The translations under genes and the position numbers were made by a program. A DNA stretch of 63,951 nt, filler included, from Globobulimina sp. (taxonomy: Eukaryota): NCBI GenBank assembly GCA_003354225.1. It is 6 parts of 6 records of this genome, joined end to end, with 100 filler letters (N's around TTAATTAATTAA, not from the genome) between each part and the next. Parts side by side here need not be neighbours in the genome. Positions count along the whole stretch, not along the records: positions 33,044 to 43,250 come from PIVH01000021.1; 5 more parts are not named here. One strand, written 5' to 3'. The notes under the pieces are model-generated. The model saw only the letters and a program-made list of their open reading frames with translations. It had not been told where the DNA came from and did not search any database. Within the stretch, counting starts at the first letter, position 1. Each line of letters begins with the position of its first letter. Below, in pieces: positions 11,246-59,232 of this stretch.

Positions 11246-11249
11246 AATT

Positions 11250-11774: not shown

Positions 11775-11777
11775 GAT

Positions 11778-13278: not shown

Positions 13279-13532
13279 TGGAAGAAAAAAAAACAGTAAA
13301 GAAGGATAAAAAGGAGGTTGCTTTTAATGGCAGCCCCCTTTATGATAAGCTATTGAAATCATTAAAAACAGGCTTATTAAACGAAACTATCGCTAGGCTT
13401 TCAGATAATCCAAAGTTATCAAAAACAGAAAAAGAAAGCTTAATTTCTAACTGCCAAAGATACATGAGAGGTAAGCAAAGTTATGTCTTAGTTAACTACC
13501 GTAAAGTTGAGCAGTTGTTGAAAGGGTTGTAA
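13278..13532 (+). CDS. Phage hypothetical protein, 84 aa
   Basis: TAATG overlaps on both sides. Confidence 0.6.
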   Translation: MEEKKTVKKDKKEVAFNGSPLYDKLLKSLKTGLLNETIARLSDNPKLSKTEKESLISNCQRYMRGKQSYVLVNYRKVEQLLKGL

Positions 13533-17661: not shown

Positions 17662-17662
17662 A

Positions 17663-20601: not shown

Positions 20602-20615
20602 AATCATTCTAAATT

Positions 20616-21698
20616 ATGGAAAGTTTATTTAAAATATATAAGCAAGGAGAAGAAAAATCATACCAACGAGACGGTAACGATAATAATTTAGCAACATTTA
20701 TACAGCTAGGGGAGTCTGATTACATACCACAAGTCGTCACTAAATATTATGATTTTGACGAAACTCTCGAGATAACATCAATTAGATTATACAGATATAC
20801 AATAACTGAATGCATAACATCATACAGTTACCCGCAACTAATAAGCCATAGAACATTAGATCAAACTATCAGTGCATTCGGGTCTATCGCTAATGTAATG
20901 CCAAGTGATTCAAGCAAAATAAGGTTTGTTTTTAATCGAGTAAGATTTAATAATCCTATCAATGACGGATATATATATGAGTTGGTAATAGCGACCAATC
21001 AAGGTGATTTTGAAAGCGAATTATTTAGCACCTTTGAATCTTATGCAACAATAGCTTTGTTTCAATGTTCTAATGCAAGTATTTCAAACGTTGATTTTGG
21101 TGTTGATCCAGTATTTACAATAGATGTTGAAGAGCTAAATAATATTGCAGGTGATGCTACTATGGATATTAAATGGTTAGTTCCAAGTATTCCGACATTT
21201 GGCAACCTTTATTTTCCTTTCAAATTCGGCGGAGCAAAAGAGGTTGAAGACTCAGAAACAAAAAGCTTTGTAGGGGGTGATACAAAAACATATACATTTA
21301 CATATTCCGATTACTTAGCTCCTGGGGATTACTCAATTCAATATCAAGCTGATTTCGGCAGTTGTTCTGGAACATTGTCCTTTACTGTAGCCAGTTATTT
21401 TAGTATGGATGTTGGTAATAGTGGATGGGATATAGCCGGCGCAACTGGGCTAGATGAAAATAAGGTTATTGATTTTGAATTAACAGTTGATAATAGCTAT
21501 ACTTCTGCTAAATTATGTACAGTTCAATTTAATTGGAATGGTGTAATAAACGAGTTTACGGAATCAGTACCAGCAGGAGGCAGCTACGTGTTTACGAAGC
21601 AATACACAGTTAATAGATATATAGATAATAATATGAGTGTAACAGGTGACGCAGGAGCTAGAGACTTCTTATTGGCTGCTATACCTCCAATACCATAA
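20616..21698 (+). CDS. Putative tail protein with Ig/CARDB-like beta domains, 360 aa
   Basis: GGDTKTYTFTY...APGDYSI and VPAGGSYVFT repeats typical of Ig-like folds. Confidence 0.45.
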   Translation: MESLFKIYKQGEEKSYQRDGNDNNLATFIQLGESDYIPQVVTKYYDFDETLEITSIRLYRYTITECITSYSYPQLISHRTLDQTISAFGSIANVMPSDSSKIRFVFNRVRFNNPINDGYIYELVIATNQGDFESELFSTFESYATIALFQCSNASISNVDFGVDPVFTIDVEELNNIAGDATMDIKWLVPSIPTFGNLYFPFKFGGAKEVEDSETKSFVGGDTKTYTFTYSDYLAPGDYSIQYQADFGSCSGTLSFTVASYFSMDVGNSGWDIAGATGLDENKVIDFELTVDNSYTSAKLCTVQFNWNGVINEFTESVPAGGSYVFTKQYTVNRYIDNNMSVTGDAGARDFLLAAIPPIP

Positions 21699-22078
21699 TG
21701 TTATGACAATAGAGCAGGCTAAAACCATAATTACAGACACGCCACCATTAAAACAAGATTATGTAAATGGGGATGAATATACAATAGCGCAAGAGAATTA
21801 CGACAGTCAGCTGGTTGAGGCATTAAGAACACTGGTAGGCGCATTTCAAGTAAATCAGCTTTGCTGAAATAAGCCTCATCTCTTGTCAATTCTTCCGATT
21901 CGTCAATATCCACATAAGGAATCATTTTAGTTTCAACTGACAATTCCGTTTTAGGATATCTCCTCCCTTTAAATATTGNNNNNNNNNNNNNNNNNNNNNN
22001 NNNNNNNNNNNNNNNNNNNNNNTTAATTAATTAANNNNNNNNNNNNNNNNNNNNNNNNNNNNNNNNNNNNNNNNNNNN

Positions 22079-22889: not shown

Positions 22890-23790
22890 ATGGGCATTGA
22901 TGAAGGTTTAATTGTGGTGCGCAGAATCACGGACGAGGTGAAATGGGCGCATTTATTACGAAGAATAGAATATGAATTTAAAACAGAATCTTTTTTTGTA
23001 AAACATCATACATTTAATGATCTCTTACTTCATCCTAAGTTGATTCTGTCCATCTCCTGTAATTTGCCAAAATATTTTCAAGGCACAAAGCAATTTATTT
23101 CGATGATTATCGCAGATTATGCTCATAAAAACGTCTGCAGTGCGGAAGATATTATCAAAATGGAAATAGCAGATAAATATTACAATTTTTATGAAGGAGA
23201 TACAGATCATTGGTTTTTTAACGGCATTCAAAATCCCGAAAAATTTGACAAATCGTACGCTTCAAAGCAAGAAATATTACATTTTACCAGGTTATGTTTG
23301 AAGAGACCAGGTTATGTTTGAATTTATGCGACCATGGATAGCCTATGAGTTCACTGTTGGAGAACATCCGACATTACCATTATTTGCTCGACATTTCAAA
23401 GGATTCACGTCCAAAGTCTCTGGTAGTTGTCGTGCTGCATCGCCTGTACTTAACAGAGTGGCACAAATTATACAATCATTTTTTCCTGACAATGTAAAAT
23501 ATTTTTGGAATGAATATGAATTTAGTATTTTGCATTATGATAAGAATCGCGATCAATGCATTGATTTGTATACACAATTAGCAAATGGCACAGATCCAAG
23601 AATTGATTCTGTGTGTTCTTTTTGTAAAGGATCACCACAAAACAACCCGGAATTGAAGGTTTGTGGAAATTGCAGATTGGTAAGATATTGTTCTAAGGAA
23701 TGCCAAATTCAACATTGGAAATCACATAAAATGCATTGTAAGTTTAAATTAAAGATTAATCAGAAAGTCAATTATAAACGTTATTATTAA
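22890..23790 (+). pseudogene. zf-MYND protein split into two frames near 23300
   Basis: CSFC...CGNCRLVRYCSKECQIQHWKSHKMHC. A 17-bp direct repeat (ACCAGGTTATGTTTGAA, 23286 and 23306) lies at the frame break. Confidence 0.6.
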
Positions 23791-23887: not shown

Positions 23888-25347
23888 ATGGTCTCTTCTC
23901 TTAATTTTTTGTTGCAAAATATTGCTCTATGTTTGGCACAAATTGGTTCCAGATCGTGGGTACCATTTTATTTAAGCCAACAAGTGATTTGCGAAGAACA
24001 GATGCTGTGCAATGGTGATATGTGCGTAGAAACCTGCATTCCCGGCACTGCAAAAGTCGATAACCATTCATCATTCAGTTTAGCATTCCAAAGATGGTTA
24101 CAATTAAACGCAGCATTCAATACCTACCAATTCCCCGGCACCCATAACTCGCACATTAGTGTCGCATATGGCTTTGCTATCGAATATCATTTGTAGATAC
24201 TTCTGATTTGCATATGGCAGAAGGCACTGATCAATATTTATCCGTCATCGACCAATTAAATATTGGCGTTCGACACATTGAAATTGATATAAACTGGGGG
24301 CCATATGTCACACTCAATTTATCCTCACACATTGTGGTCTGTCATACGCCGGTGGTCGACCCCATTATTCCCGCAACCATACAAATGTGGGCTAATAATA
24401 GGAGTATTCCACTTAACTATGATCCTTTGCACCTTGCTTGCCCCAAACAACATGTTTCGTTTATTGCAGCCATGCAGGAAATTAATGACTGGCTTCAGCG
24501 GCATCCCAATGAACTGGTCATTATATACTATGACACAAAATGGCCGATCGATGCCAGTCAGTCTGGCTGGGGCACTGCTGCGTTGTTAGATATTTTCGGA
24601 GATGCCATATTTACTCCCACCGACTATGAAAATAACAACAACTCCTTTCCCACTGTCAATGCCTTATTGTCCAATGGCAAAAATGTCATAATTGAAACAC
24701 AGACCGCTGGCTGGACCAAACCATATAATAATATGAGTAACAATGTCGTGTTTTATCCGGCGTTATGGGATAGTCCCAACGGACTACAATTTGGTCCGAG
24801 TGAGTTTGTTGAATTTCCGATGTGTACAATCAAGGGTTTATTTACTTATAATCAGCAGCTTAGTCGTGATTTGGGTGATGTTGTAACGGAGGCATCGACG
24901 CGACATCGTCAGTATCATAAAATTGTGGAATCTGTCACGAAATGTGGCGTCAATATCGCCTCCCCGCATATGGTAAATCCGCATGAGATGGATATGTTTG
25001 TCTGGAGCTTCGGCTATGGACAACCGGATGGAAAGTATAAATGTGTAGCACAGAAACCAAATTTGCATTGGGCTACGAAAGAGTGCAGCACAGAGATGAA
25101 CATTGCATGTCTTAATGTCAATGATAATACATTATGGTACGTGACAAAGGAGAAATATTCGTGGAATGAGGCAAATAAAAATGGTGCGACAGTTTGTGGT
25201 GTGAGAGATTATGTATTTGCAGTGCCAACGGATGGATATCAAAATGCATTGATTAATGTTCAATCGTTAGCCAAATATGTTTGGTTAAATGTAAACACTG
25301 ATGACTTTATCAAATATCGTCAACAACATAACATGAAATGGTACTGA
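23888..25347 (+). pseudogene. Secreted PI-PLC X-domain-like phosphodiesterase with C-terminal lectin-like domain; frameshift near 24185
   Basis: PGTHNS in the first ORF and DQLNIGVRHIEID in the second are consecutive PI-PLC-X motifs in different frames; WSFGYGQP...C...W...C C-terminus. Confidence 0.7.
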
Positions 25348-25746: not shown

Positions 25747-26723
25747 TTACAGTTCAATATCTCTGCCAACATTTGCAGAGTCTTTATATTCATTTGTTAT
25801 AAACTGCAATTTCAACGCATCAAATAACGAGACAGCAATGACGTATCTTGGGGTTAGCCATAAAACCCTCGCAATCACTCCATCAAAGAATGATAGAATT
25901 CCTTCCGACTTTAAAACACGCATAGCACATTGGAAAGAGTTAGAGAATGGAAACAACTCCGGATTTGCTTTTTGAACTTGCATCCTTGTCTTAACTAAAT
26001 CCAATGGAGACGTAATAACCGACGATGCTGTGCCAGCAATGCAGGATGAGAGTAAAAACGAATTATCACCAAAATATCTTTTGCTTTGCCCATAAAACAT
26101 CCAATAAAATCCATTAAAAGGAGCCCATGTAAATTGATGTATAAAATACGCTCTATAAATACCAAATATTCCTTCTCTTTGCAGGATTGATATAGCCGCA
26201 GATTTGGCTGAATTATAGTTGACATTTGTAGCGATTTGTCCTTGTATTTGACATCTTTCCTTTAATACATCCATTGGAACCCAGGCTAAACTGCCACAGA
26301 GTTGTCCTATTATACCAGATGAGAAATCAACTTTGTATTTGTATCCATTGTATGCGTATTATTGTACCAATTGTATACGTGTACAAACTACAAACCTAAT
26401 GCGGTTTGTTTGGACTTCTCAAATGTTACTTTGGTTGCTTCGACGCCAGCAAAATATAGCGCTGATGCAAAAGGCGCGCCATAGACTACTGCACCAATGC
26501 CCTGCCAAAATGACATGGGACCTTCATTGCGCATCATTGTAAAAGCTGCTTCTATCGGATTTTTGTATGCAATGGTTACCTCGTTTTTCAATGTCTCTGT
26601 CATTGCTTTCTGTGCACCTTGGACTTGCATACGAGTTTTAATTGTTGCTATTGGATGGGTTAATACATCTGCTGTCAAACCAGCAATGCCTCCAATCACA
26701 GGCGTCATATAATAACTATCCAT
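25747..26723 (-). CDS. Mitochondrial carrier (SLC25) protein, two exons; intron 26331-26395
   Basis: Three carrier signatures (PIATIKTRMQ, PMDVLKERCQ, PLDLVKTRMQ). A 65-nt GT...AG intron restores the frame (ALVDFSSG). Confidence 0.9.
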
Positions 26724-32943: not shown

Positions 32944-33078
32944 NNNNNNNNNNNNNNNNNNNNNNNNNNNNNNNNNNNNNNNNNNNNTTAATTAATTAAN
33001 NNNNNNNNNNNNNNNNNNNNNNNNNNNNNNNNNNNNNNNNNNNTCACAAAAATATTAACGATTACGATGGTATAACTA

Positions 33079-34140
33079 TTACAATAAATATGCAATCGAT
33101 GCTAACACCACTGCATAAAAATAGGCATATACTTTGCTGTCAGTTGCAAAATCTACATTATCGTCATGAGCACCTTCAGCTTCTTTCTCTTGCTGGACAG
33201 TAATATTTCTTGTTGAATCAAACAATTTATTAAATACTGACATTGATTCTGACCCAGTTACATCATTCCATGTCGTTAAAGTTGAATAATAAAATACATC
33301 AACAACTATCACAGTATTATTTGCATACAATTTATCATAATTTCTCAAATCAACATGACATTGACTGATATCCAATAAAATGGCTATCCAATTCTTAACC
33401 GCAATTTGAAAATATTCTTCCACATAATCTGCATCCACAATCCCTTCGATCACCACATTCAATATCCCAATATTCGCATCGCCATCGTCGTACTCAAAAG
33501 CTCCACCATCACAAATCTTATCTTTATATATACTCACACTGCTCATTGCCCTCATTGACACATCATACGCCTTTTTATTAGCTGCAGTATTTTCAATCGA
33601 ACAGTCAATCCCAAAATATCCCGGCGAACAAACACAACTCCCATTCAAAATGGTGCCATGTCCATCGCATATATACGGATTTTCATCATAACAAATATTC
33701 TCAAACACAGGGCAGAATATCTTATCAAATCCGTAATCCCAACCTCTTTCATACACATAGCCAATCTTTTTAGTTACATTTTGAGACTCGTCGCTAAAAC
33801 AGGTGACCACATCAAACAAAGTATGTTTATAATTTCTATAATGAGTCATTCTTGTGCCCACATACTGGCCAACATAATTAATAAAACATTCCATTGGAAA
33901 ACAAGCAGTTCCCACAGGGTTGACACTGCCCGAAAGCCGCGCACATTTCGAGTTGCCACTAGCGAGACCACCAAACGCTTCAAGCTCGAGATCATCGCCG
34001 CCCCACTCACTGCCAGTATTATACTCGCCATATAACCTACAATCCGCTGTCAATGTTTCCTCATACAATGGGCAATAATCAGGATAGGCCAAGTCTCCAC
34101 CAATGTTACCAGAGCTAAAGTACTGATATTGAGTTTGGAG
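33079..34140 (-). pseudogene. C-terminal half of a leishmanolysin/GP63 (M8) peptidase with EGF repeat and hydrophobic tail
   Basis: QYQYFSSGNIGGDLAYPDYCP motif; C.GHG....G.CVCSPGYFGIDC. The HExxH catalytic half is missing and the retroelement 3' end lies in its place. Confidence 0.7.
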
Positions 34141-34434
34141 ATTAATGTTTTAATTTATTCCTTATATATAAAGATATAAAAAAGGATTTAAAAATAAATT
34201 GATTGATTGATAATTATGACTATAATATGAATAACTAATATGGGGATATGATGAAGTAATATGTACTGTGAATAAATCATTCTGTAAAACGGGGGGGAAA
34301 CATTAATATTTAATTACTTGTATTATAACTAACAAACAAATACCAAACACATAATAAACAAATACATAAAAACATACTTGTAACAAATAAATAAATACTA
34401 AAATAATAACTCCCCTCCCGAATATTATTAATGA

Positions 34435-35712
34435 CTACAGTTTTAATGATTTAATAGATTTACTAAAATGTTCTAAATAATAATCAGCTTCTTCTTGATC
34501 AAAATCAAATTGTTTACTTAATTGAAATTTCGTATCTTGTTCTGCGTTAAAATAAATATAACTTAATCTCATCATATCCCCTTCCGGATAATTTACATAT
34601 ATATAATAACTATCTCTTAATTTCCAACGGCCAACCCATGCAATCAAACCACGTTCAACACCTAATCTACTTAGCTGTGATGCAAATCCTTTGCGAAGAG
34701 AATGTGGTTTCTTCAATCGATTGGATTGAAAGAAGCCAATAAATAATATTAAATCACCAAAAATTGTTCTAAAATCATCCGTGTTCATAGGTTTGCCCAT
34801 ATGCTGAAATAAATGTGATTTGGAATTCCATGTGAAATGTTGAGGAAATTTCTTTGATAGAAATTTCAAAGTATGATAAAGATTAAATAGCATCAAAGCT
34901 GGATCAATTTTATGCTCTGATCTGCCAATCATAACATACGCAGTCTGACCTGTATTACGCATTTTGCTGTTTTGTAAAACTAAGCGTAATCCATGAAATG
35001 TATCCTGATTAATTGAGGTGTTATCCTCTATAATAATAAATTTATCTGTGTTTGATGGATCAATCACTTTATGATATAAAGTAATATCACATTTTCTAAT
35101 ACCATACGTGTGATTTTTGTCTTTGAAAGGATGAAATACTTCACCTATTCGCATACCTGAGATAACCATAACATTCACCGCCACCAAGCTCATACGTATA
35201 TGCATACAAAATGGATAAAACAAAATTTCTTCATCAATAATCAAATAATTTTGTGCTGCTTTCTTAAAATTCGAGCATTGACGTTTTGCTTTGGCGTATA
35301 ATAATTTTTCTGTTACAAATTTATTAAATCTAAATAAATGATCGCGTAAAAAAGGAATTGCACTGTCATTTGGATCCGAGGCGTTTCTCTTTTTACCATA
35401 ATCGACTAAGTTTGTTAATGACGGATTAATTGACCACGATGTTGGTGTCATAGCCAATTTATTAAAGTGATCCACTGCGCACAATTTATATCTCATTGTG
35501 TTCCATTTATTAACTTTCTTTCTCACCCAAAGACAGTCAATCATCCATGCCATCAAATAAATATCTTTTGTGGGAAAAGTAAGAAATTCTTGTTTGGGAA
35601 TTTTAAGGCGAGTCATTGTATTACAAAATTCGCAGAAATTACTATAATATGTGTCTTCTGTGGATACTTTAATTCCTCTCGAAGACATTTCGTGTAATCC
35701 AATGGCATGCAA
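34435..35712 (-). CDS. Tyrosine recombinase
   Basis: SGMRIGE (R), NSKMRN (K), HSLRKG (HxxR), GRWK...YYIY (W, Y). Confidence 0.95.
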   Translation of the reverse strand: MHAIGLHEMSSRGIKVSTEDTYYSNFCEFCNTMTRLKIPKQEFLTFPTKDIYLMAWMIDCLWVRKKVNKWNTMRYKLCAVDHFNKLAMTPTSWSINPSLTNLVDYGKKRNASDPNDSAIPFLRDHLFRFNKFVTEKLLYAKAKRQCSNFKKAAQNYLIIDEEILFYPFCMHIRMSLVAVNVMVISGMRIGEVFHPFKDKNHTYGIRKCDITLYHKVIDPSNTDKFIIIEDNTSINQDTFHGLRLVLQNSKMRNTGQTAYVMIGRSEHKIDPALMLFNLYHTLKFLSKKFPQHFTWNSKSHLFQHMGKPMNTDDFRTIFGDLILFIGFFQSNRLKKPHSLRKGFASQLSRLGVERGLIAWVGRWKLRDSYYIYVNYPEGDMMRLSYIYFNAEQDTKFQLSKQFDFDQEEADYYLEHFSKSIKSLKL

Positions 35713-35922
35713 TGGAAGATATTGCCATATGTTATGATTGAAATTCGAATCTCGTGATCTGCCTAAAATTTGTTGTATAAATGAAGGGAAATATAATTTA
35801 AATTTGCTGAAAGTGTGTCAAAATTACTGTACATTTATCAAAATTTGTATTTGCAAAGTTGTGAATTATAGATACAAATGATGTGTATATTAATTGTAAT
35901 ATACTAATTCTGCAATTATTGA

Positions 35923-37805
35923 TTATAATAATGTGATATCAGGATAAATAAATGGAGTCGGAGAATTATCAAAATTTGTGAATTTACGTGATTTGCAATG
36001 AGCTAAGAATTTGGCGACATCAAAACGAGATAAATCATCAGCATACAGATTTTCTTTTGTTTTTATATAATTTATCTTGACTCTTAATTTATATTCAAAA
36101 CAAAACCATACTGTCCATCTAATGCAATCCATCAAAAATACATCGTCTGTATTTTTTGAACTAAATACTGCCTCACAATGCTGATTATCGCATCGTAAAT
36201 TAATATCAATATTGGAATCAAAATAATGTTTGTAAGTCCATAATGCAGCCACAATGGCAAGTGCTTCAAAATGAGCTATATGCTGCTCTTGTGTATAAAC
36301 CATAGATTTGTCTTTGTCTAAATATTTAGTATAAATATCCATATATTGATTTGGAACAATGTCAAACGACCAATGACCTGCAAAATACGCCCCAATGCCA
36401 GGTTGCCACGTTGGTCTTTCTCCGTTTGTGGCGCCGTCTGTGTATAAATTTAATTTCGGTCTGTTGCCGTGATTGACAACATCATAAATATTTACTCGGT
36501 CACATAAATACATATATTTAATCCATAAATTCGCATCTTTCACTTCACTGTCAATGAAGTACATCAACGTAGTGTCATCACCATGAATCCGTTTATGTGC
36601 TGTCAATTTCTTTCTCATTCTACGTAAAAATGCTGTACCGGGCCACATTAATGCTGCCATCCACGTTAAAGTGCCCATTAATGACTCATATTTATCACTC
36701 ATTAACATACGGCAACATACAATAATTATAAGTATTAACAATGCTTTCTTCTTCTTCTTCGGACCTGGACCCACTGTCATATCCGAAGTGTCGTATATCA
36801 ATCCACAAACCTCCATAATCCAAGATACTATTTTCCTTTTTTCTGCTTTTTCAATATATCCACATAACTTCAAAAATTCAAAGAATTTGTGCATCAAAAA
36901 CGTTTCTCTTTTTCTATCTGAAAATGGATAGGATTTTATAAATCCAATGTGATCATCAATATATACTAAGTTATCAATCCTTTCATTGTTTAATAAGTAG
37001 GGCTCAATCCATTGTTTGAAAGCCAATAATAATACGTTACCAAAATCTTGTGAATGCTTTGATGCTCCTTTACTTCCATAAATATCACAGGTATCAACTA
37101 ATTCAAGTCCCATAAATTTATAACCCATATATTTCCATTCACTTTGATTCATTCCTAATTGTCTAAATGCATCGGCGCCGTCTGTCTTAAACATGAGACA
37201 GAAACGTCCCATAATAATAATTTTATTGCAGAAATCTTTGCATAGAGGAACTTGCATTCTATAATCAATCGGCGCTGTCAATGCGTTAATGCTATAGGTC
37301 CACAATGAGGAAAATGTTGCATGTCTGCAAATTCTCGCTTTGCTGTGTCTTTGTGTCTTAATTGTAACGGGTTTACCCGTTTTCTTGTCAACGGCGACTA
37401 ATTGGATGAAATTCAATATTCTCTGATTGTTATGTAATAATTTGTGCTTTGGACCAATTTTACCTAATTCTATCTGTTCAGACAGGTTCCTACCGACCTC
37501 AATCAATTCTAAAATATTAAAATCTTGCATTCTTTTCACTTTTTGATTCATTTGAATATTATCATTATTTGTAATGCCTAATTTCCAGCCATGTTTTAAG
37601 CAAATAAGTGTCTGATTAATTAAAATGTGCAATTTTCTATCATTTCCAACAGGAATTTGTTGAATTGCATGAATTACAAATTGATTAAATGGCTGACGAT
37701 GCAATTTTGATTTGACATATTTAAAATTCTTAATTGCTTTATCGAATCTACATTTTACAATGTCCCACAAAATTTTATTCCATAAATATGGATTTAAATA
37801 TAATT
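35923..37805 (-). CDS. DIRS-type reverse transcriptase / RNase H
   Basis: KTDGADAFRQL, YGSKGAS, YIDDHIG; RNase H LYTDGA, HFEALA, LRCDN, NLYADDLSR. No ATG at the conserved N-terminus. Confidence 0.95.
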
Positions 37806-38339
37806 CTATATAATATTTACAATTTACAATAATTAATATTGATATTTAACTACTTAACAACATCCGGTAATGATGTGTTAGTATATTGTGAATTTGACTG
37901 TGATCATTTGTACATATTACGCGTCGGACGTAAAAAATGATCTATATTCATTCTAATATATGAATATCAAAAGCTTGTGTCCTGAAAGTGTGACTTTATA
38001 CTTGTTTACTAAATAAACTAACTAAGAGTTTTTACGCTTACTAAGTGTTAAAAATAAAGGAGAAACTACGAAATATTACAATACCTTGTAAATATTGCGT
38101 ATAATGATAACAACCCATCCCTGAGTTTATTAATATCAATTTTAATGTGAAAATTAAGGATAAAAAATAAATAGTCCACAAATCAAATATCAATAAACCA
38201 AATTCAATTAAAATTGTCTACAAATCAAAATAATATATAAAATATATAATAAATATAAGTGATAATAAATGTATAAATTAATAGAATATAAAATAAATAA
38301 TTTAGTGAATATACTACGAAAAGATAAGCATTTCGTTTA

Positions 38340-41236
38340 CTATCCATATCCATATACATTGCCACCGCCTCTGTTGTCGCATTTATCCGAGGTATGGCGA
38401 TCTACAATGAAACAAAATCTACACATATGATGCCAATCACATTTCTCATGGCACGAACTGTAATAACATCTACCTTTCTCGCGATAGCCACAAATATATT
38501 GCACCAATTCCGGTCCACCATAATATACACCATTCTTCGTATGATAACAATTCATTTTCTGTACATTTACTTTCTTGTCCATCGGTGGATGATTATTGTT
38601 CTGGTTATAGCGATTTTGTTGATATCCACCATGACTCACTTTTTGTCGTTTGAATGGTGGTTGGTTTGCATTTCCATGATTTTGTTGTTGATTATTTGTC
38701 GGTTGATACATATGTTCATAACGAGACGGATCATAATCGCCTTGTTGTTGTTGTTGATAGTTACCATTCATTTGTTGTTGTTGATAGTTACCACGTCCAT
38801 TACCACGCGAATTACCACGGCCATTGCCTCGATAGTTACCTCTGCCGTATTTGTTGTACCTTCCTCTGAAGTTACCACGTTGTGGCTCGCCGTTGTAATT
38901 ACTATTGTAATCATTATATTGTCGTCCACCATAATTACCTCTACCACCACGATGGCGATATCTTCGTTTATATCGACCGCGACCTCTGTAACCTCTCACG
39001 TTCTGCCTTCGTGGTATGTAATTTGTTGTGTTTTGAGTTGGTTGATTATTATTGTTCGTTGTTGGCGTATTCGATAAACCAGCATCATACGAACGCGATT
39101 CTTTGGAATTGTAATGTTCATTGGACAAAATTGCTAATTTCCATTCATTTAAAATATTGCGATCGCTTAAATTCTCTCCTGCGCTCACTCCGCGTTCTAA
39201 AACTTTCTTTCTTCTTTTCATCAGAAAATGATTGAAGGCTTTTAAACCTTCGTTACCTCTCAATTTATCTGTTAATTCATGTTGGATAAATTTGGCAAAT
39301 TTCTGCCATTGCAAACCTTGCGCCGTCAAATATGCGCTTTGTATCAATGTTTCTGTTTTTTCGGATTTATTTCTATGGATATCTGCCAATTCCGTGATTG
39401 AAGATGCTATCATTACTACACATTGATAAGTTGCATTGTGTTCAGATTGCAATGCTTTTATTGCTCCGTCAATCGTTGTATGCTTTCGCGACCAATCAAT
39501 TTCACCAATTAATGCAAAATAACGTAATAAATCCGTGAGCGGTGCACCTCCGGTCGTGCATAATCGATAAAAACTAATCTTAGCCGCTGACCGTTTTTTG
39601 CGTGATAAGTTTCCATTAATAGCCGTATTTAAATCGTCCTGATCCTTTTTATACTCCATATAATTATAATAATCTAAGTTTAAATGGGGATATCAGGGAT
39701 GGTATGATGTGTATATTAATTAATGAGTTATATATAAAAACAGATTATAGGACATAGTTAACGCGTATTTGCGTGAATTCAGTCAGATTACACAACAGAT
39801 CTGACACTAAAACAAATTTTATAAAGGGGACAAATGCACACTACAAAATATGGACACACTCAGAGCAACTAAAGGGACATAATACACATACTCTGCATTA
39901 TAGATTGTCGGATATCATCATCCGTTACATGGCTACCACCATATTTGTTCATTAACTCTGTAAAATTTATTTGATCATCCTCTTCATCACTATTTGGATG
40001 CATATGTGTTAAGCCACTGACTAATGCGGCTTTGTTGTTTGATGCAATATCTTTCATTACATCTTCTTGCACATTGTTTGCGTTATTAATAATCTCTTGA
40101 TTGTAATCATCATTTCTTACATTGACGTTAAGGTTGCGATCTACAGATCTTTTATTGCGAAGATTTGATGTAAGTGTTCTTTGTCTGTTATTTGCATTTA
40201 ATTGTGTTAATAATGAAGGTTTGTTATTAGTGTTGCTGCGATTTCTTGTATTTGTGTTTCTGACTTTGCCTAAATTTAGCAACCAATTATTATTATGTTC
40301 ACTGTTTGTATCACTGTCATCTGCATCTTCTGTCTCTTCTTTCTTGTTCTCTGCCTCTTTATTCTCATTCGTGTTGTTGCGATTGTTGTTATTGCCCTGA
40401 TTTGATGGCATTTTATTTAATATTTTCTCTTTATATGCATCATATTCATCATTTTTATTTAATGCACTAATAAAAGTCTGGATAACTGCGTCAATTTTGG
40501 ATAAGTCCGGATTAAATTTAGATGCCTTGAATGCGACGGACGAGTTTGTTAATCCGTAATAATGGTATCTTTGTGCCTGCGGTGAGTTCTTTAATGTCAC
40601 ATTTTTGTTCGGATCCGCAATAAATTGATTAAATTGATTTATTCCTTCATCCCATATATAGATCGCATAATTTATAAATTCAGTCACTTGATCTTCGTTA
40701 TAATCGCCAGGAATTCCTCTCGCGGACACTAATAAACTTTCCATTAATTGTAATGTGGCATAATCTTTAGTTTGTAAATAATCCGTTAATTTGCATGCAA
40801 TTAAATTAATAGCTTGTTCTTTCACTGTCTTCATGAATTTGTACGCGAAGTCATCCGCACAATCCGGAAAAGCCCGGTTATTCGCATCTGTTACTGACCA
40901 TAATGGATCATTCTCGTCATTGATAATAAGCGAATTTGTATTCAATTGTCTCAATCTCTTGAATGCCAATCTCGAATCACTCTCTTTTGATATTTTAAAA
41001 CCAATATGCTTGCCCTGTGTTGCATCCGTTGCCGTGATTACTTTCTCTGATTTAATGAATTTAAATCCTAAATTAATATTATCGTATTGATCAATTAATT
41101 TCTTACTAATCGTTGCATACGGTTCGATTGATGATATTTCATGCGGTGGTTGTGTAATATGGACAAGTCTTTGTGCCGCAATTAATTTAAGATTGACACC
41201 ATTGAGTGCCTTTCTTACATCGAAGTTAAATGACAT
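38340..41236 (-). CDS. Gag-like protein, predicted two exons (intron 39674-39891), with RGG tract and Cys/His zinc fingers
   Basis: CAG A|GTATGT donor and CTTAG|AT acceptor join the 455-aa and 439-aa ORFs in frame; C-terminal CGYREKGRC...CDWHHMCRFC....HTSDKC. Confidence 0.75.
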
Positions 41237-41410
41237 AACGATTGCTAATCGTCTTTTGCTACGTTAATATACTTTGCTAATATACTTTTAGTGTTTCTGT
41301 GTCGAGACTGTATTTAAAACAAAAAAGAACTAAAACTTAAAAAACTTAAAAACTTAAAGTAAACTGTAAATGTAAACAAATATAGAAACGATATAATATT
41401 AGTCACCAAC

Positions 41411-41998
41411 TTAAAACCCTTGTTCCACGAATACAACATAGTGTTTAATATTTTGTTGTTGTAACATTATATTTGAATGTTGTTGAAAAAATAGATATTG
41501 TGCATTTATTGCAGAGATTTGATTTTGTAGTGTTTGTATATTTTGTTTCGATACCGATGAAATATAATCAATCTGCTCATTTAAGCGTGCTTTTTCATTG
41601 TAAACCTGGAGTGATTCCTGTATTGATGCCTTATTTTCCGTTTTCAACGATTGATTCTCTTCAACTGATACATTATGTGCAGATTTTAATTTATTTGCTT
41701 GATTTTGCAATAATTCATATTTTTCGCAATGTTTTTCAATTTGTTGGGTTAAATATTTGTTTTTGTCTTGTAACACTTTAATATTTGTTTCTTGATCATT
41801 AATTGATTGTGATTTACAATTTGATTTTAATTTGCCTTTATGGAGTGCTTTTAATTTGCAGTTGCTTTCATAAACTGATTTCATCGGTTTTTTAATCAAT
41901 TCATGATCAATTTGCATGAAAAGCGGTGAAGCCCTCAAGAACATCTCGTTAATAACTTGGTTAATTTGATCATGACTTGGTTGTTTCCAGGTTGCCAT
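41411..41998 (-). CDS. Coiled-coil protein, 195 aa
   Basis: Q/N/K-rich heptad ORF co-oriented with the retroelement. Confidence 0.5.
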   Translation of the reverse strand: MATWKQPSHDQINQVINEMFLRASPLFMQIDHELIKKPMKSVYESNCKLKALHKGKLKSNCKSQSINDQETNIKVLQDKNKYLTQQIEKHCEKYELLQNQANKLKSAHNVSVEENQSLKTENKASIQESLQVYNEKARLNEQIDYISSVSKQNIQTLQNQISAINAQYLFFQQHSNIMLQQQNIKHYVVFVEQGF

Positions 41999-42514
41999 GC
42001 GATGGCGAAGTTTGATTAAACGTTAAAATGAGTTAAAAAGATTGATTACATTTTTACAAGTTCGAGTTTTCCCAACATTTTTGTCAATTTTGCTCTCCAT
42101 AATAATTATTAGCAACGATGACCTTTGCAATGGTATACTGTCGCGCGAATATAAGTAATTCTAAGAAATTTTAATAAATTTAATACTATGGAAATTATTC
42201 ACAACACACAAAATATTTTAGCATTTTAAAACAAAAAAATTAAAAGATAACTAGCCTCATACGACTAAAAAACAAGAAACTAAAATAAAAAAGAATCAAC
42301 AAAAAACTACAACAAAAAAAAATACATTTTAAAAATAATTTTAATTGGAAAGCTACAATGCTATTTTTCTAAATAATAAAACTAAAAAAAAATTAACAAA
42401 ACTCGCTTTATTATGGATGAGATTTATACGGAACTATATTTTCTTTATAAAAAACTAATTATAAAAAAAATTAATTATCAGAACTTGTTTTTTCATCGAT
42501 AATTATCAACATAT

Positions 42515-43189
42515 TTATGAAACAAATATTTTCTCAGTTCCGGTATGGTCCGCTTTAAGAAATAAATATTTTGGATTTGATTCAACAATTTCTGTCAAAT
42601 CAGTTCCCGATATTCTATGTGAAAATTGTTTGAATAAAATTGGTTGAATATAACGGATTGATAACCCATTTTTTTTATTTTCTTTTTTCGATAACAATTT
42701 AATCATTGCTGCTAAGATACGTTTATCGTTTGGTTTCTCTTTCTGTTTATCTCTATTTATAAATGGTCGCACATCGATATTATTGCCCTTTATTTGCAAA
42801 GGTGATAATTTAATCAATTTATCCGCTTCTTTTGTGTCCGACAATGTGACCCAAGAAAAGCCAAACTTTCTATATTTCATCTCAGTGCATTTTATAACCA
42901 CAACGCCCAACGTAGCCAGTTCTTTTTTTATATCCTTGATGGTTGTGCCGTGACTAAAACCACCCATAAATACAGAACAATGATCCTCGCCAAACGGAGA
43001 TTTATTATTTTGAGTGTTCTTCGTATCTGAATCTGTTTCTTTGTGCTCTGTCCATGTCTCACTGGTTTCTGTCCGCTCTGATTGTATACATTGCATTTTC
43101 TGCACAATACGTGCGATATACGGCGCCTCGCTGCAGATTTTAGACTGGTATTTTAAGAAGAAATCGTTTTCAAATTGCTGTGGATTCAA
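42515..43189 (-). CDS. RRM-domain protein with possible C-terminal winged helix
   Basis: SVFMGGF (RNP2), FGFSWVTL (RNP1), IKGNNIDVRPF. Confidence 0.7.
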   Translation of the reverse strand: MNPQQFENDFFLKYQSKICSEAPYIARIVQKMQCIQSERTETSETWTEHKETDSDTKNTQNNKSPFGEDHCSVFMGGFSHGTTIKDIKKELATLGVVVIKCTEMKYRKFGFSWVTLSDTKEADKLIKLSPLQIKGNNIDVRPFINRDKQKEKPNDKRILAAMIKLLSKKENKKNGLSIRYIQPILFKQFSHRISGTDLTEIVESNPKYLFLKADHTGTEKIFVS

Positions 43190-43486
43190 ATATATATTTA
43201 TAAACTCAAATAATTGTTGATATCCTGCCGGTTTGGTGAGTATGAGCGTGNNNNNNNNNNNNNNNNNNNNNNNNNNNNNNNNNNNNNNNNNNNNTTAATT
43301 AATTAANNNNNNNNNNNNNNNNNNNNNNNNNNNNNNNNNNNNNNNNNNNNATATGTTTGCTTGATATTGAATTAAATAATGCATTGTTTTACTATATTAA
43401 TTATTTACAGATAGTATACATTTCATTCAATTATATTTCTTATACAGAAATGGTTTGTTATGTGTGGGAATGTGCACGAAAAATTA

Positions 43487-46457: not shown

Positions 46458-46485
46458 ATTAATAAGGTAAAAAGTAAAGTAAATA

Positions 46486-49400
46486 ATGATAATAATAGAT
46501 TATATTAATAGATGGACATCGCCCGAAAAATTTCGTGGTAAAATATCATATAAAATATTATGGAATAACGAGTTATTGGGAGTCACTGAGAAACCCTTTG
46601 TGGACTTAGGCGATAAATATCAGGTTCGCATGAAATTTGAATATATGCAACAAAGGAAAAGCTCGCAGCACGACGACGATAGCATGGCGATGGACGATGA
46701 CGATGATAGCAACGATGGCGACGAAGCCGACGATTACAAATATAATCATAACATGTACAGCAACAATAAGAATAATAATAATAATAATCGCTTGCATGAA
46801 ATCAAATTGACACTTAAATCCAAAACATTTTATAAAGGCCAAGCGGCAGAATCGACGGAGAAATGCGAAGTCAAACTGGAACAACCTTTTATTAACAATG
46901 AGATCGAAGGGGATATTAAATGGGAGAACATGTATCCGCACGACATGGATTTGGAGCAAATTGTAATTTGGCTATATTTGGAGACAAAGTCGACGGATAA
47001 ATGGCAGGTCCAACCGCAAAAAAGTTATGTTTTGTTATTTGAATGTAACTAATGTTGTGTGACTGTGATTTTTCATTTGTTTGTTAGATGAAGAACAAAA
47101 CATTGCATTGCGTAAAATCGGTAATATTCTGAGTGTGAATGAAGCATTGTTTGTGGCTGTATGGCGGAAACCATTTTGCCGCCATTTGCATAATTTCTTT
47201 AATATTGGCACCAAACAAGAACACTTAGAACAGCAACAAGTTGAGGATCAAGTGGATGATGATGAGGCGAAGAACAATCAATATGACGATTTGGACACGA
47301 CGCCATCACGCGATCCGAGTATGGGTGGTTTTATTTTGCGCGCCAAGCAAAGGGCGATCGTCATTCAATATTGCCGCAAAACTTGGCGGTTTGGCGGCTT
47401 CTTCGGCGGTGCGGATAAGCGCCGAGAGGACATTTTCAATGCAATGCTGAAAACAATGTTGCATAAAATGAGGAATGATGATGACGAGAAATATAATGAG
47501 AGCAATGCAGATTTATTTACCTTTCACGATTGCAATGCAAGCATCGAATGGATATTTGGTGCGGAATGGAGTGCGAATCGGGAGTCATTAGAAGGTATAT
47601 TACATTCTGTATTTTCAGCAGAATTGAAAAGAATGTTAGATCACACATGGGATGACAGTGAATATTGCGATAAAAGTATCAAACAATTATTGTTGATGTT
47701 TTATTGGTTATTTAAGTTATTCGCACACAGATTCCGCAGTTATTGGCTGATTGGCATTATGCGCAAATTAGCAAAATATATAAGTTTGCAGAATAATAAT
47801 GAGCATAATATCACTTTGTTTGAGTATTTAAATAAGATATTTGGAGCGCAGTTGATATGGAAGGAAAAGCGAAATTGTATCATGAAGTTTGTAGCAACTC
47901 ATTCGAGGAAGAAACAGCAAACGTTTATTAAGGAGTTTTTGCCCGCGGTGCTGTGGTATAATGTGTGTTGGAATTGTGCATTGATTGAGGACACAGCGAA
48001 AAATGTGGCTTTTTTGACTGGTATACATGGCAAAGATAAGCTTGATTTGCAGCAAAGATTTGCGAGCGTTCAGGACAAATTAAAAATGGATAAGAAGTTA
48101 TTTGATGACATTGTGGCTTTAAATGATGTCTGCGATTATAAGGAAAATGAACAATGCATTGATTTTCGAAGTGTGTATCTCAAAGAGATATTATTCAAAT
48201 CAGCATCGGGATTACATGAATTTATTACGTATTTGAAACATGTGTATGCTGTGGCGGATATTGCGTCATTTTCAAACTTATTAAATGTATATTGTTCCAG
48301 TATAAGTAATTATATTCGCAATGATTTGGATAAATGGAGAGAATATTTGAAACAGATTTATTTATTATTACAGTTAAATGGACAGATCAATGAAGAAAAA
48401 ATAGCGGTTTTAAACAATGCGATAAAGCCAATTTATGCAATAATTGGTGCGATTTGTGGTAGTTTGGAAGCTGACGGATTAAGCAAATTAATATCAGAAT
48501 TACCAGCGTCTTATGACAAAACCAACATTTTAGAGCAGATCTTATTGAATAATAACAGTTATTTACTATTCAAACATGCGGATAAATTCATTGACTTAAT
48601 CGTAGAAATATTATTATTGCGCAAAAATAATGTCCAACTCCGCAAAACATTGAGTGTCATACACGCAGTGAATGGGAAGAGCATAAATCTAAAAACATAC
48701 AATGAATTCGCCGAATATCATTTGCAGCTCGCCATTGAACATTGGACATCGTCGATAAATAAAAGATATGCCATAGATATGGTGAATAAACACAACATCG
48801 GTTGGAAGGTCTTAGCAAATACCTTTCATTTAATAATTGAGAAGAAAACGCAAGAAAGATTTGGTTCGCAGCAGACAGACAACGACGATTTAAGTATGAA
48901 GTCGTTTGGAGCGATGATAGATTTTATGGTCGATACTGACATTCCAATCGTTGGCAGAAAAGCAATGGTTTTTGATTTGATATCGTTTTGGAGGGAAAAT
49001 GTGAAAAAGAAAAACAAGTTTCTAAATAAATTGTATATGATATTATTCCAGTTATTATTTGGCCGCAATTGTACGGATAAACACAGTGAATTATACGATG
49101 AAATCATCAGACAATTTCGAAGTATTTCGCCATATAATCAGTACTTTTACCAACAACAAAGTATAAACACAATGGGGATGGATTTGGATGAGGAAGAAAA
49201 AGAGGATGAAAAAGATGAGTCGTGGGATGATGAGAAATTTAATAATTTTCAAGAGACCACGTTAAGTCCTCAATTTTTACGTATTTCGTCATCCGATTGT
49301 CGGTTGTTAATGAATCAAGAATCATTTTACCGATTTGGTAAGACATTGCAAGATGAAACCAATCCATTTCGACAAACATTATTGTTAAAACAATCGGGGA

Positions 49401-50287
49401 TATATTATTTGATGGCCATTCTAATGAATCGCCTCAATGAACATAAGAAATCTGCATTTTTCTTGCAAGAATGTTTGCGAATTCATATAAAAACAGAGAA
49501 AAAAGAAAAAAAGATTGGGAATAATACATTGAAAGCGTTTTGTTTATCCGATATTGCATTGGCATATTATTACAATAACAAACAACAAGAATCGATCAAA
49601 TATATCAGAGATGCAATGAATTTGAGTGGTGAGGGATATGTAAACTTAATTAATTCGGTTATAAATGGCAAGGAAGAGGCAGTTGTTGATGTTATTAAAT
49701 ATTTGGATACAAATACAAATAATGAACAATATGAGCATGAAATGGAAAATAAAGAGAATAAAGAAAATGAATCGGAAGCGGAATATAGTAATTATTCCTT
49801 TTTTGGTCGGTTTACGTATTGCCGATGGCTGACAAAACGTGGCCAATATGATAAAGCTAAAAAGGAGTATGGAATTATTATGAAATATGATGAGAATAAA
49901 AAAATAAATGTGATGAATGGTTTGATATATTATGAATATGGCGAATTGCTATTGAATCATAAGCAAACTGATGAAGCTAAAAAACAATTCCTTACTGCTT
50001 TAAAAATTAAACCGTGTTTGCCAAATATTCATGAAATGTGCAATGACAAATTAAAGGCATTGGATGATAAACATAATCCAAAGCATTATCCCTATAATGA
50101 GCATATCATAAATATGAATCGGAGAGATTCTGTTTCCGATATTCAAGATGATAATGATGATGATAAGATTGACAATGATGACAATGATGTTATCAATGAT
50201 TTGAATGATAATGATTCAGCATTTATTGATTCGCAAGATGAAGAATCTGCGATTCCATCTGTACAGCAAACCACATTATTAGTATAA
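46486..50287 (+). CDS. Large helical protein with C-terminal TPR-like repeats; intron 47024-47087
   Basis: A 64-nt GTTATG...TTGTTAG intron joins the 188-aa and 1068-aa ORFs in frame; YYEYGELL...DEAKKQFLTALKIKP is TPR-like. Confidence 0.7.
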
Positions 50288-52085: not shown

Positions 52086-53816
52086 TCAAAGTAAAATTGT
52101 ATAATCATCATCTTGAAACTCATAGTCTTCATTGACATCACACATTGTTGTTGTTGTTGATATGGATCCCTTTAATATACCAACACTTTCGTCGACCATT
52201 GCTGACTCATCCTCTGTTCCACACATATGGACAGCATTATTATTTGATTCATATTCACATTGTTTTAATTCCGAGTCTTCTTCGTCAAAATCATCTTTTA
52301 GTTTTGCTAAGTTATGCATTGTAAACGTATTACTGTCGTTATTGTGTTTTGTATAATTAACATATCCACTTTTATTCCATTTTTGTATTGCCTCACTATC
52401 ACATTCCACGCATTCCACTTCCACGGTTTTGATACGAAATATATCCAAATTAAATACTGAATTACCATTTATTTCCTTTGAATTCTCATTGTTTTTTAAC
52501 TTTTGTTGTCGTAAATGTTTGATTGCTCCAATAATTATTATACACAAACAAACTGTAATTACGCACATTATAATTGCTATCCATTCTGCTGTGGAAAGCG
52601 TCGTTGATTTATCCTTGTCATTTTTTATTGGAATGATTGCATCCAAACTTGTATACGTACTCGCAATCAGATCATATCTACAACTTATAATTAAATCCAT
52701 TTTGAGGTTTGAAATACTGTCAATATCTGTTATCTGTTGCGTTAATATTTGCAGTGTGTTATTTAAGCAAACATATATTTCTGCGGTAACCGCAATTTTA
52801 TTATCTATTAAAGAAACGTTGACAGAGTAGTCTTCTTCAATCGTTTCTATATCGATACAAGTCACAGAATTAATAATATCCAAAATATCATTGGTGATCT
52901 TGTCCATTTCGCTCTGATTTGAATCAATTGTGCAGGTAATATCAATGCACATTTTATAAGACTTTGGCTGTGATGTACTAAATATTGGCTTATCTGTTGT
53001 TGATGTTGCATTTGTTGATAACAACGGAGTTAATGGACACGCATTAAACTCTAAAACAATATCACTGTGATTCAAATCGATAAAGATCGGTGACCCTGAA
53101 ATATATAAATATTTTGAATGCATTTGTGCATTGTCAATGGCTAAGCCAATAAAACCAGAAATATTTCTCATTGGTTTCGTTATTGAGCTATTAAACATAT
53201 CGTCATTAAATAATATATATTGGATGTTATTTAATTTAATATCAAAATAAGTGCCATTCGTAATCTTAATGTTTAATATATAAAAGAATGCATCTGTTTG
53301 ATTGATATAAACTGAATATATTTCATGTTGCATATTTTCATAACATCGCATTATAAATAACTTCTCATTCTTACTAATTCCAATAAAATAATTATTGCAA
53401 ACTGATTGAGGGAAATTATAAATGTAAATGCCTGCAGTTCCACTTCCGAACATATATTCAATTACTAATACACCATTATTATTTACCCACTGTTTCCCCG
53501 AATTAATAATTACTTTTTCATCATACAAACTCTCCCAATTTTCAGCATAACATAATTCATTGGGCATACCGCATACAATCCGCTTCTTATCACCACATGA
53601 ATCCATTTGCCACAAATAACTCTCATCTGTGCTCATTGCACCGCAGCTATGTCGATCAATATTATTATTGTCAGTCCACGGATATTTATTTAAAACCTTG
53701 CCATAATCCCAAAAAGTGCCGTCGTTCCAAGTGATATCGACACTGATACCTAACCAACAATCATTTTCTGCATTGCTTCCAAATAAACATAACAATTTTG
53801 ATTGGCTGTAATCATT
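52086..53816 (-). CDS. C-type lectin-like ectodomain plus TM; probably the same gene as the kinase; 5'-partial
   Basis: CWLG...WNDGT...W...CGAM...WQMDSC....IVC; TM WIAIIMCVITVCLCIIIIGAI; same frame as the kinase. Confidence 0.7.
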   Translation of the reverse strand, partial: NDYSQSKLLCLFGSNAENDCWLGISVDITWNDGTFWDYGKVLNKYPWTDNNNIDRHSCGAMSTDESYLWQMDSCGDKKRIVCGMPNELCYAENWESLYDEKVIINSGKQWVNNNGVLVIEYMFGSGTAGIYIYNFPQSVCNNYFIGISKNEKLFIMRCYENMQHEIYSVYINQTDAFFYILNIKITNGTYFDIKLNNIQYILFNDDMFNSSITKPMRNISGFIGLAIDNAQMHSKYLYISGSPIFIDLNHSDIVLEFNACPLTPLLSTNATSTTDKPIFSTSQPKSYKMCIDITCTIDSNQSEMDKITNDILDIINSVTCIDIETIEEDYSVNVSLIDNKIAVTAEIYVCLNNTLQILTQQITDIDSISNLKMDLIISCRYDLIASTYTSLDAIIPIKNDKDKSTTLSTAEWIAIIMCVITVCLCIIIIGAIKHLRQQKLKNNENSKEINGNSVFNLDIFRIKTVEVECVECDSEAIQKWNKSGYVNYTKHNNDSNTFTMHNLAKLKDDFDEEDSELKQCEYESNNNAVHMCGTEDESAMVDESVGILKGSISTTTTMCDVNEDYEFQDDDYTILL

Positions 53817-53916
53817 NNNNNNNNNNNNNNNNNNNNNNNNNNNNNNNNNNNNNNNNNNNNTTAATTAATTAANNNNNNNNNNNNNNNNNNNNNNNNNNNN
53901 NNNNNNNNNNNNNNNN

Positions 53917-55362: not shown

Positions 55363-55383
55363 TCTTCAAAACACTAAGAAATC
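55363..55383. repeat. Dispersed motif copy 2 (TCTTCAAAACACTAAGAAATC)
   Basis: Perfect reverse complement of 63705-63725. Confidence 0.9.
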
Positions 55384-55695
55384 TCTTCCCCCCTCAAGGA
55401 CAATCCTCGAATGCTATCATCTTACTTTGTTCTAATTAATATTTTGTTATATATACTTGTTGCAGCCTCAAAAGGTACAGTCTTGCTCTTCGCCTTTGTT
55501 CTTACAAATGAGTATAAAACTGCAATACTAAACTTTATAATAAATCCAATAAATATACATATAAAAAATACAATAAACTCCTCCAATAATTGTTTAAAAA
55601 ATTGGAAATGCTCCCTCCTATATAAAAACAATAATATACTAAATAATAATAAATTGTATACTGTTTATACAGATTACACGCAATCCCGCATTACA

Positions 55696-58815: not shown

Positions 58816-59232
58816 TTAAAAAGTATTTAATTTTTAAACAGAAGTTTGCAACCAACCAAGACCCGATTTGTAGTATATATAATAATTTATTCTATTCCCC
58901 TTTAATTATCTACTTAATTTTCTTAGTTTTTTACTTAAATTTGTGTATACTGTGCCTTTCTTTTAATTATGTGATTGATAGTAATAAAGCCAGAGACCAT
59001 TTTATTTTTACGGATTTGCAATATGAAATTTTATTTCAGTGCAATCCGATTACAATAATAAAATACTCTACTTTCCCATTTGTTTTTTCTTTTAAGCCCC
59101 CCACAATTCTGTATAGCACATTAATAATTCAATTACAAATCTGTGACTATTATGGCACTGACTATAGATACAAAAGTCCTATACAAAGCAAACAAAAACC
59201 CTCTTACTTAAGTCTTGAAACTAAAAACGAAA

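Follow-up and report, generated by a model that had tools for sequence, protein, structure and literature searches.

A divergent tyrosine-recombinase retrotransposon whose reverse transcriptase frame has no usable start codon of its own

The accounts of Ngaro elements in PMC8547959 and PMC3783388 give them a gag-like open reading frame (ORF), a reverse transcriptase (RT) with RNase H, a tyrosine recombinase (YR), and no methyltransferase. DIRS-1/PAT-like elements are outlined in PMC3783388 and PMC7192593 as encoding RT, RNase H, and a YR that replaces the DDE integrase, and PMC3783388 adds a methyltransferase-like domain, inverted terminal repeats, and an internal complementary region. Here, we analyze a stretch of 63,951 nucleotides (nt) from the Globobulimina sp. 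assembly GCA_003354225.1 (the window) and, on its contig 33044-43250 (PIVH01000021.1; 10.2 kb), a locus that is a coding-intact, very divergent YR retrotransposon with Ngaro-like gene order. The RT of this element has no usable ATG of its own, and the same is true in relatives. RT-RNase H, and the conserved N-terminal part of YR, may receive their start codon by splicing of some kind, the reading that we prefer and to which we give an even chance.

The original prediction described a YR retrotransposon with separated ORFs, and the domains, their order, and spacers of 209-570 nt are all found. On the minus strand, ORF0, gag, RT-RNase H, and YR follow one another with stop-rich spacers in between, and gag to YR spans ~5.3 kb (Table 1). 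As in Ngaro, the order is gag, RT/RNase H, YR, the YR carries His-x-x-Arg and the catalytic Tyr, and no methyltransferase (Dam-like) domain is matched by Pfam in the element. As in DIRS-1/PAT-like elements, RT, RNase H, and YR are present without a DDE integrase. The methyltransferase-like domain and inverted terminal repeats of DIRS are not found in the contig, where the only inverted repeats are assembly linkers and short chance pairs. Unlike in Ngaro, split direct repeats of the type A1-[ORFs]-B1A2B2 are not found in the contig, and the 5' end may lie past the contig end. Direct repeats of at least 40 nt are absent from the window, and from the contig by self-BLAST. Where the region that follows YR resembles the one that precedes ORF0, the match is T/GT-rich low complexity. 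The element further differs from Ngaro in that its ORFs are 105-494 nt apart (stop-rich), its RT lacks an ATG, and an extra orphan ORF lies upstream. DIRS-1 ORFs overlap, and most descriptions of DIRS-order retrotransposons have the ORFs overlapping or adjoining.

Table 1 Features of the element, its candidate splice signals, and its surroundings (positions in the window; a slash marks a splice boundary).
Feature	Position	Strand	Details
ORF0	39869-41236	(-)	455 codons, ATG 41236 to TAG 39871-39869
Candidate 5' splice site A/GTATGT, phase 1	39886-39891	(-)	7 codons before ORF0 stop
Exact 18-mer AATTAATATACACATCAT, copy 1	39704-39721	(-)	ORF0-gag spacer
gag candidate acceptor AG (cttAG/AT)	39674-39675	(-)	sole AG between in-frame stop and gag ATG
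gag-like ORF	38340-39659	(-)	ATG 39659 (A at -3, G at +4), stop 38342-38340
Motif variant ATATACTAACACATCAT with TACTAAC	37870-37886	(-)	gag-RT spacer; first ATG after it, 37863
RT local options	37806-37951	(-)	ATG 37863...A/GT 37853, 48-nt intron; or ATG 37951...C/GTAATA 37920, 115 nt
RT candidate acceptor AG (tatAG/AA)	37806-37807	(-)	sole AG between in-frame stop 37848-37846 and conserved start
RT-RNase H open frame	35923-37845	(-)	640 codons stop to stop; YIDD; RNase H D-E-D-D
Exact 18-mer AATTAATATACACATCAT, copy 2	35878-35895	(-)	RT-YR spacer; first ATG after it, 35834
YR local option	35763-35834	(-)	ATG 35834, TAC, A/GTAATT (donor G 35827), 65-nt intron to AG 35764-35763
YR candidate acceptor AG (ttttAG/GC)	35763-35764	(-)	next full codon, conserved Arg
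YR open frame	34435-35817	(-)	first Met 35688 (codon 44); catalytic R...HxxR...W...Y
RRM-like frame	runs off contig end	(-)	upstream of coiled-coil-like ORF
Coiled-coil-like ORF	42022-41411	(-)	
Leishmanolysin-like/EGF open frame, flank	33079-34149	(-)	starts at Pfam Peptidase_M8 position 391 of 529
Linkers between contigs	10945-11044, 21979-22078, 32944-33043, 43251-43350, 53817-53916		

The RT is so divergent, relative to Ngaro, that Pfam RVT_1 gives no score on it. The closest atlas clusters carry RVT_1 (score 0.98), the RT profile matches the RT/RNase H chains 8r0s (4e-5) and 4ol8 (0.31) of the PDB, and Pfam RT_RNaseH matches seven of the nine aligned RT members. Residues Y295, D297, and D298, together with RNase H residues D470, E527, D553, and D603, are invariant in the alignment of nine sequences, and the frame stops ~37 residues past the last RNase H Asp. 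Because the Pfam RT model misses the element, standard annotation pipelines may overlook it. In the YR, residues R223, H372, R375, W398, and Y407 are invariant in seven sequences; Pfam Phage_integrase matches at E 5.6e-4, under the family cut-off, and PF00589 is on record for the related protein P0015. The gag-like protein is helical in its N-terminal part, RG-rich in the middle, and carries a Cys/His cluster at its C-terminus. It has no match in Pfam, and no similarity beyond composition was found to the gag of L003, a related metagenome locus. ORF0, gag, RT, and YR end in TAG, TAG, TAA, and TAG, respectively, so a variant genetic code is not needed.

The lineage is rare, with relatives in one foraminiferan transcriptome and in metagenome contigs. 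The RT search returned nine proteins among 4391 candidates and the YR search four among 1794, including P0004, which derives from a transcript of the foraminifer Nonionella stella. A metagenome scan yielded four loci (L001-L004), and no relative of RT was found in viral-contig and genome-contig collections. The gene order is gag, RT, YR in L003 and RT, YR in L002 and L004; L001 holds RT only. The DNA of these loci covers the genes from gag or RT onward and nothing upstream of gag. L002 and L003 have 76-78% mean column identity in aligned regions. The last ~110 residues of another protein, P0016 (349 residues), are 72% identical to the C-terminus of the element's YR and the first 240 are unrelated; P0016 is probably a chimeric gene call or a chimeric contig, holding a closer copy of the element.

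The absence of a usable ATG from the RT, here and in relatives, is solid. As originally predicted, no ATG stands at the conserved start: the first in-frame ATG (37551) is codon 99 and is preceded by seven out-of-frame ATGs, and residues 19-98, the N-terminal ~80 residues ahead of that Met, are conserved in homologues. The DNA of L001 and L002 likewise shows no ATG ahead of the conserved RT start, and the proteins P0001 and P0003 do not start until after it. In the closest subgroup (the element, P0001, P0002/L001, and P0003), an ATG at the conserved start is found in none of four. The start-less RT loci are otherwise open for 527-735 codons, indicating that the absent ATG is not simple decay.

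Alternative ways of making RT and YR are blocked. The ORF0 stop lies 209 nt from the gag ATG, the gag stop lies 494 nt from the opening of the RT frame, 534 nt from the RT candidate acceptor, and ~570 nt from the conserved W27, and the RT stop lies 234 nt from the YR Met. RT-YR fusion and read-through were considered and rejected: eight of nine aligned sequences keep the C-terminal PDLxx[FW] of RT right to the stop, and with five in-frame stops on the way from RT to YR, neither route yields YR. Fusion of RT to YR by splicing was rejected as well, since no GT occurs in the last ~20 codons after 35987. An intron at the gag end would have to use a GT in phase 0 (GTATAT, 38357) or phase 2 (GTAAAC, 38340), whereas the sole RT AG requires phase 1; therefore, gag-RT fusion is also rejected.

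RT and YR share one reading frame in the element (35923/35817), L002 (2487-2490), and L003 (3524-3572), and do not in L004. In L002, a single TAA separates the two, and in the Nonionella transcript (P0004), RT is fused to YR. The shared frame may be a vestige of an earlier single RT-YR frame.

Protein conservation begins where the proposed RT and YR AGs lie. From the RT AG, it is 14 nt to the CCA TAT codons for Pro-Tyr and 38 nt to a Trp codon; for an AG of L001, the distance to this Trp codon is 38 nt as well. An AG 14 nt ahead of GCAAAAGAT is common to L002 and L003, with diverging flanking sequence and differing codons in between. In the four RT regions, six of six AGs are in phase 1. In the YR, the Arg codon after the AG is conserved, 11 residues before a conserved Trp, and the conservation R-x5-FN-x2-[ILV]W-x3-P opens at the first full codon after AG 35763 in the element, P0004, and P0013. 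The conserved segment reaches 24 codons upstream of Met 35688. In P0004, a Cys/Leu/Val/Phe-rich (T-rich) stretch is read right before the YR acceptor point. In addition, the YR AGs of L002 and L003 are preceded by 17/20 pyrimidines, which ranks them best among the 156 and 174 AGs of their contigs (top 0.6%), and the tracts are pyrimidine-rich in both though their sequence differs. The relatives lend modest support to the RT and YR acceptors. Three acceptors had been predicted: those of RT and YR lie at the start of conservation, whereas gag has an ATG of its own, favorable in context, 14 nt past its candidate AG. The gag AG is preceded by 13/20 pyrimidines, and 8.5% of the contig's AGs are equal or better.

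The coordinates and frame arithmetic of the original prediction (donor 39891; AGs 39674, 37806, and 35763) are all correct. With each of the three AGs, the next exon begins on the second base of a codon in the gag, RT, or YR frame, and a phase-1 donor joined to any of them creates no stop. Between the last in-frame stop and the start, there is one AG for gag, one for RT, and four for YR (phases 2, 1, 2, and 1). Phase-1 GTs make up 15 of 44 in ORF0 and 43 of 65 in gag, 58 upstream in all, and a triple frame match by chance is estimated at ~0.25-0.3. The frame compatibility of the donor with the three acceptors is therefore no better than chance.

Several observations weigh against splicing at these AGs. 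The pyrimidine tract of the RT AG is weak (9/20, a score reached by 59% of AGs), and that of the YR AG has 12/20 pyrimidines (reached by 15%). For the offset shared with L001, the chance probability is ~0.1, and L002 and L003 are close kin and hence not independent. Within the elements' coding sequence, 420 of 935 AGs (45%) are in the matching phase (G at codon position 1), the most frequent class, the share by locus being 79% in L001 and 47-55% in the other three; for the four first AGs before RT, the chance of agreeing in phase is about 1 in 10. The phase agreement is accordingly weak evidence. As to conservation of the splice sites, proposed earlier as a check, the offset of the RT AG is the same in the element and L001, and in L002 and L003, and the YR AGs of L002 and L003 have top-ranked pyrimidine tracts; with a phase null of 45-79%, these remain candidate conserved acceptors. 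ATGs are present at the conserved RT start in the DNA of L003, P0006-8 have M there (by protein only), and P0013 and P0015 have M at the conserved YR start, indicating that direct initiation works in the family; gene callers write M for GTG and TTG too, as seen for P0005 against L002 and P0010 against L001. Finally, at least one host gene in the assembly is frameshifted, so single-base errors are possible.

The splicing reading would work as follows. The RT-RNase H frame and the conserved N-terminal part of YR, which have no initiation codon of their own, would be 3' exons, with AG 37807/37806 (RT) and AG 35764/35763 (YR) as putative acceptors. An upstream exon would carry the ATG and end after the first base of a codon. 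Its donor would be either long-range, as in retroviruses (39891 or a phase-1 GT in gag), or part of a local mini-exon 48-115 nt upstream. Gag would, most simply, be translated from its own ATG. YR would probably obtain its start codon in this way as well.

Host contigs do splice, as the mitochondrial-carrier gene of the window indicates. A 65-nt phase-1 intron at 26331-26395 (-), G/GTTTGT...ACAAAG/TT, lies between its exons 26726-26396 and 26330-25750. The three repeats of the encoded protein confirm this intron, the only one of a host gene in the window to be homology-verified. A probable 43-nt phase-1 intron at 47045-47087 (+), T/GTAACT...TTGTTAG/AT, joins ORF 46483-47052 to a 1072-codon TPR-containing ORF at 47069-50287.

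The ORF0 protein is N-rich in its C-terminal half. A word-based search among 4899 candidates found no homologue at E ≤ 0.01, and Pfam gives only sub-threshold DUF4923 and Toprim. The best atlas score is 0.75, a lead only, and a single-sequence AlphaFold2 (AF2) model has a predicted local distance difference test score (pLDDT) of 34 and is unusable. The sole match in an exhaustive HMMER search of 1.84 billion representatives, P0017, was rejected as spurious, since it is an unrelated repeat protein matched through a 40-residue repeat motif. By base composition at the third codon position, ORF0 is not separable from element or host genes. The orphan status is weak evidence, because gag also lacks similarity to the gag of L003. 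With the candidate donor, the exon would stop at 39892, one base into codon AGT, and an in-frame ATG (39898) lies two codons upstream of the donor. A tie of donor 39891 or ORF0 to the element is not supported: the shared leader domain of the original prediction finds no backing in an ORF0 without homologue, terminal repeats are not found, and local donors are equally compatible.

The spacers contain a repeated motif (Table 1). The longest word common to the ORF0-gag and RT-YR spacers is an exact 18-mer; shuffled spacers share 13 nt at most, and 0 of 200 reach 18. The comparisons of the first spacer with the second and of the second with the third are not significant alone. After copy 1, the first AG is 39675-39674 and the first ATG is the gag ATG. 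The motif is not found in L002 or L003. As a branch point in the gag-RT and RT-YR spacers, the 18-mer/TACTAAC was tried and rejected, since the first AGs after it (37853 and 37850; ~35829) lead to stops in every phase. Close to the acceptors, local exon options can be drawn. Both RT options end at AG 37807-37806, and 44% of shuffled upstream sequences offer one too; for YR, 19% of shuffles give a solution, and the 65 nt of the option equal the length of the mitochondrial-carrier intron. Similar options are seen for RT in L001 (70 nt) and L002 (123 nt). In the RT-upstream spacer, L002 has two tandem units of ~137 nt (1-275) and L003 three of ~60 nt (~910-1060); the element's own spacer has no tandem repeats.

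The two forms that splicing could take differ in their donor. In one, a foraminifera-like protist lineage would make RT and recombinase from subgenomic mRNAs by splicing a single coding leader exon to conserved acceptors of phase 1: the exon ending at 39892 (all or part of ORF0) would be alternatively spliced to 39673, 37805, and 35762, giving the products a common N-terminus. We consider this rather improbable. All three frames fit, the donor GTATGT resembles the host donor GTTTGT and is the sole GT[AT]TGT in ORF0 or gag upstream of RT, ORF0 stops seven codons on, and no AG stands between the 18-mer of the ORF0-gag spacer and the gag acceptor. The ATG at 39898 would also allow a very short coding leader, with N-terminal lengths then like that of P0013. 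However, ORF0 is an orphan that no repeats place inside the element, gag has its own ATG just past the AG, and phase-1 GTs are plentiful (15 in ORF0, 43 in gag). Relatives with their own M for RT or YR carry no 448-residue N-terminal domain, and the introns would be 218, 2086, and 4129 nt long, compared with 43 and 65 nt for host introns. In the other form, which is unlikely as well, if a little less so, each start-less ORF would have its own short 5' exon (ATG, a few codons, N/GT) and a short intron, and such units may start transcription internally at the motif ATATAC(TA)ACACATCAT. The intron sizes would fit those of the host. All four start-less ORFs examined (RT and YR of the element, RT of L001 and L002) have a solution, with shuffle frequencies of 0.44, 0.19, 0.45, and 0.52 (product ~0.02), and neither of the two ORFs whose AG is directly followed by an ATG (gag of the element, RT of L003) has one. 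The 18-mer shared by two spacers, which no shuffle reproduces, points the same way, and the productive ATG is the first after the motif in all three spacers, a pattern noticed post hoc. However, the ORFs were divided into start-less and others only once the data had been seen, and over all nine cases there are six solutions against ~4.4 expected. The donor hexamers are poor (GTAGTT, GTCTAC, GTTCTT), the YR of L002, which has the best acceptor, lacks a local solution, neither L002 nor L003 repeats the motif, and internal promoters are unproven. The two forms also differ in how they would fare on copying. A short intron in the full-length RNA should vanish on retrotransposition, whereas long-range splicing that removes gag would keep its introns stable: spliced RNAs presumably cannot found autonomous copies, so the acceptors would be kept across 41% protein identity. 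Stability would thus favor the leader type, while intron size and the local pattern speak against it. Both forms are sub-cases of splicing of some kind, and the likelihoods given to them lie within that of the latter and do not add to one with the rest.

The competing view is that nothing is spliced: RT would be made at a low level, initiating at a non-AUG codon or in some other unconventional manner, with YR starting at Met 35688, or this copy would be an inactive relic, and the frame matches would be chance. This is somewhat unlikely. It gains from the low cost of the frame match, from the ordinary pyrimidine tracts of the element itself, and from relatives with M at the conserved start; no terminal repeats are found, the neighboring gene is truncated, and the window holds one copy only. 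Since retroelements require only small amounts of RT, inefficient initiation might be enough. Against it, three independent loci lack the ATG by DNA (the element, L001, and L002) and two by protein start (P0001 and P0003), with ORFs of 527-735 codons that are still open, and seven out-of-frame ATGs lie ahead of codon 99. The conservation of YR upstream of its Met and the YR AGs of L002 and L003, with the top pyrimidine tracts of their contigs, also speak against it.

If a shared leader is used, the arrangement would resemble that of retroviral subgenomic mRNAs, in which a donor upstream of gag serves downstream acceptors while the unspliced RNA stays the template. In deltaretroviruses, the start codon of tax plus one base is donated by an upstream exon. 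Unlike in retroviruses, the spliced products here would be the enzymes themselves (RT and recombinase). Such a retrovirus-style strategy is not known to have been described for the DIRS order; it would make the replication enzymes depend on host splicing. To our knowledge, protein expression in the DIRS order has hardly been studied. Should RT, and probably the recombinase, be unable to start by itself, the lineage would clearly exemplify retroelements that depend on introns and retain them, would be a case of convergence with retroviral gene expression, and would explain the setting of the gag:RT:YR ratio without frameshifting. Penelope-like elements reportedly offer a precedent for retroelements keeping spliceosomal introns, as Arkhipova et al. 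are said to have described in 2003. Penelope-like elements belong to another class with another enzyme set, and their introns do not distribute a start codon among ORFs. A literature search for natural splicing in YR retroelements found no report; supplements (e.g., the Ngaro annotations of PMC8547959) were outside the search, and where PMC7192593 treats splicing, it is that of an artificial marker intron. In either case, the element extends the DIRS order to a very divergent branch.

Every long ORF of the contig is on the minus strand. The 5' part of the leishmanolysin-like frame is absent from the contig, i.e., this neighboring gene is truncated. Rfam and tRNA scans of the contig gave no matches, and self-BLAST found no second copy of the element within the window. 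The window consists of six ~10-kb contigs joined by linkers of the form N44-TTAATTAATTAA-N44, and contigs that lie side by side in it need be neither adjacent in the genome nor from the same organism.

At 11220-21698 (+), ten successive same-strand ORFs have stop and start codons that abut or overlap (TAATG, ATGA style), and the two largest have no match in Pfam; the arrangement looks like a compact bacterial or phage layout rather than eukaryotic genes. A 1445-codon ORF at 59212-63549 (+), with Exo_endo_phos_2, RVT_1, and RNase_H, is a non-LTR (LINE-like) retrotransposon, and overlapping ORFs precede it at 55378-59246. At about 24150-24170 (+), a PI-PLC X-domain gene shifts frame (...GFAIEYH / SFVDTSDLH...) too tightly for an intron, indicating either a pseudogene or a single-base assembly error. 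A lone in-frame TGA at 52086-52088 (-) separates a 592-codon ORF from a 391-codon protein-kinase ORF in one frame, and no GT...AG was found around it. At 23300-23340 (+), a direct duplication of ~17-20 nt (accaggttatgtttgaa, twice) coincides with the frame change between two ORFs of a zf-MYND gene.

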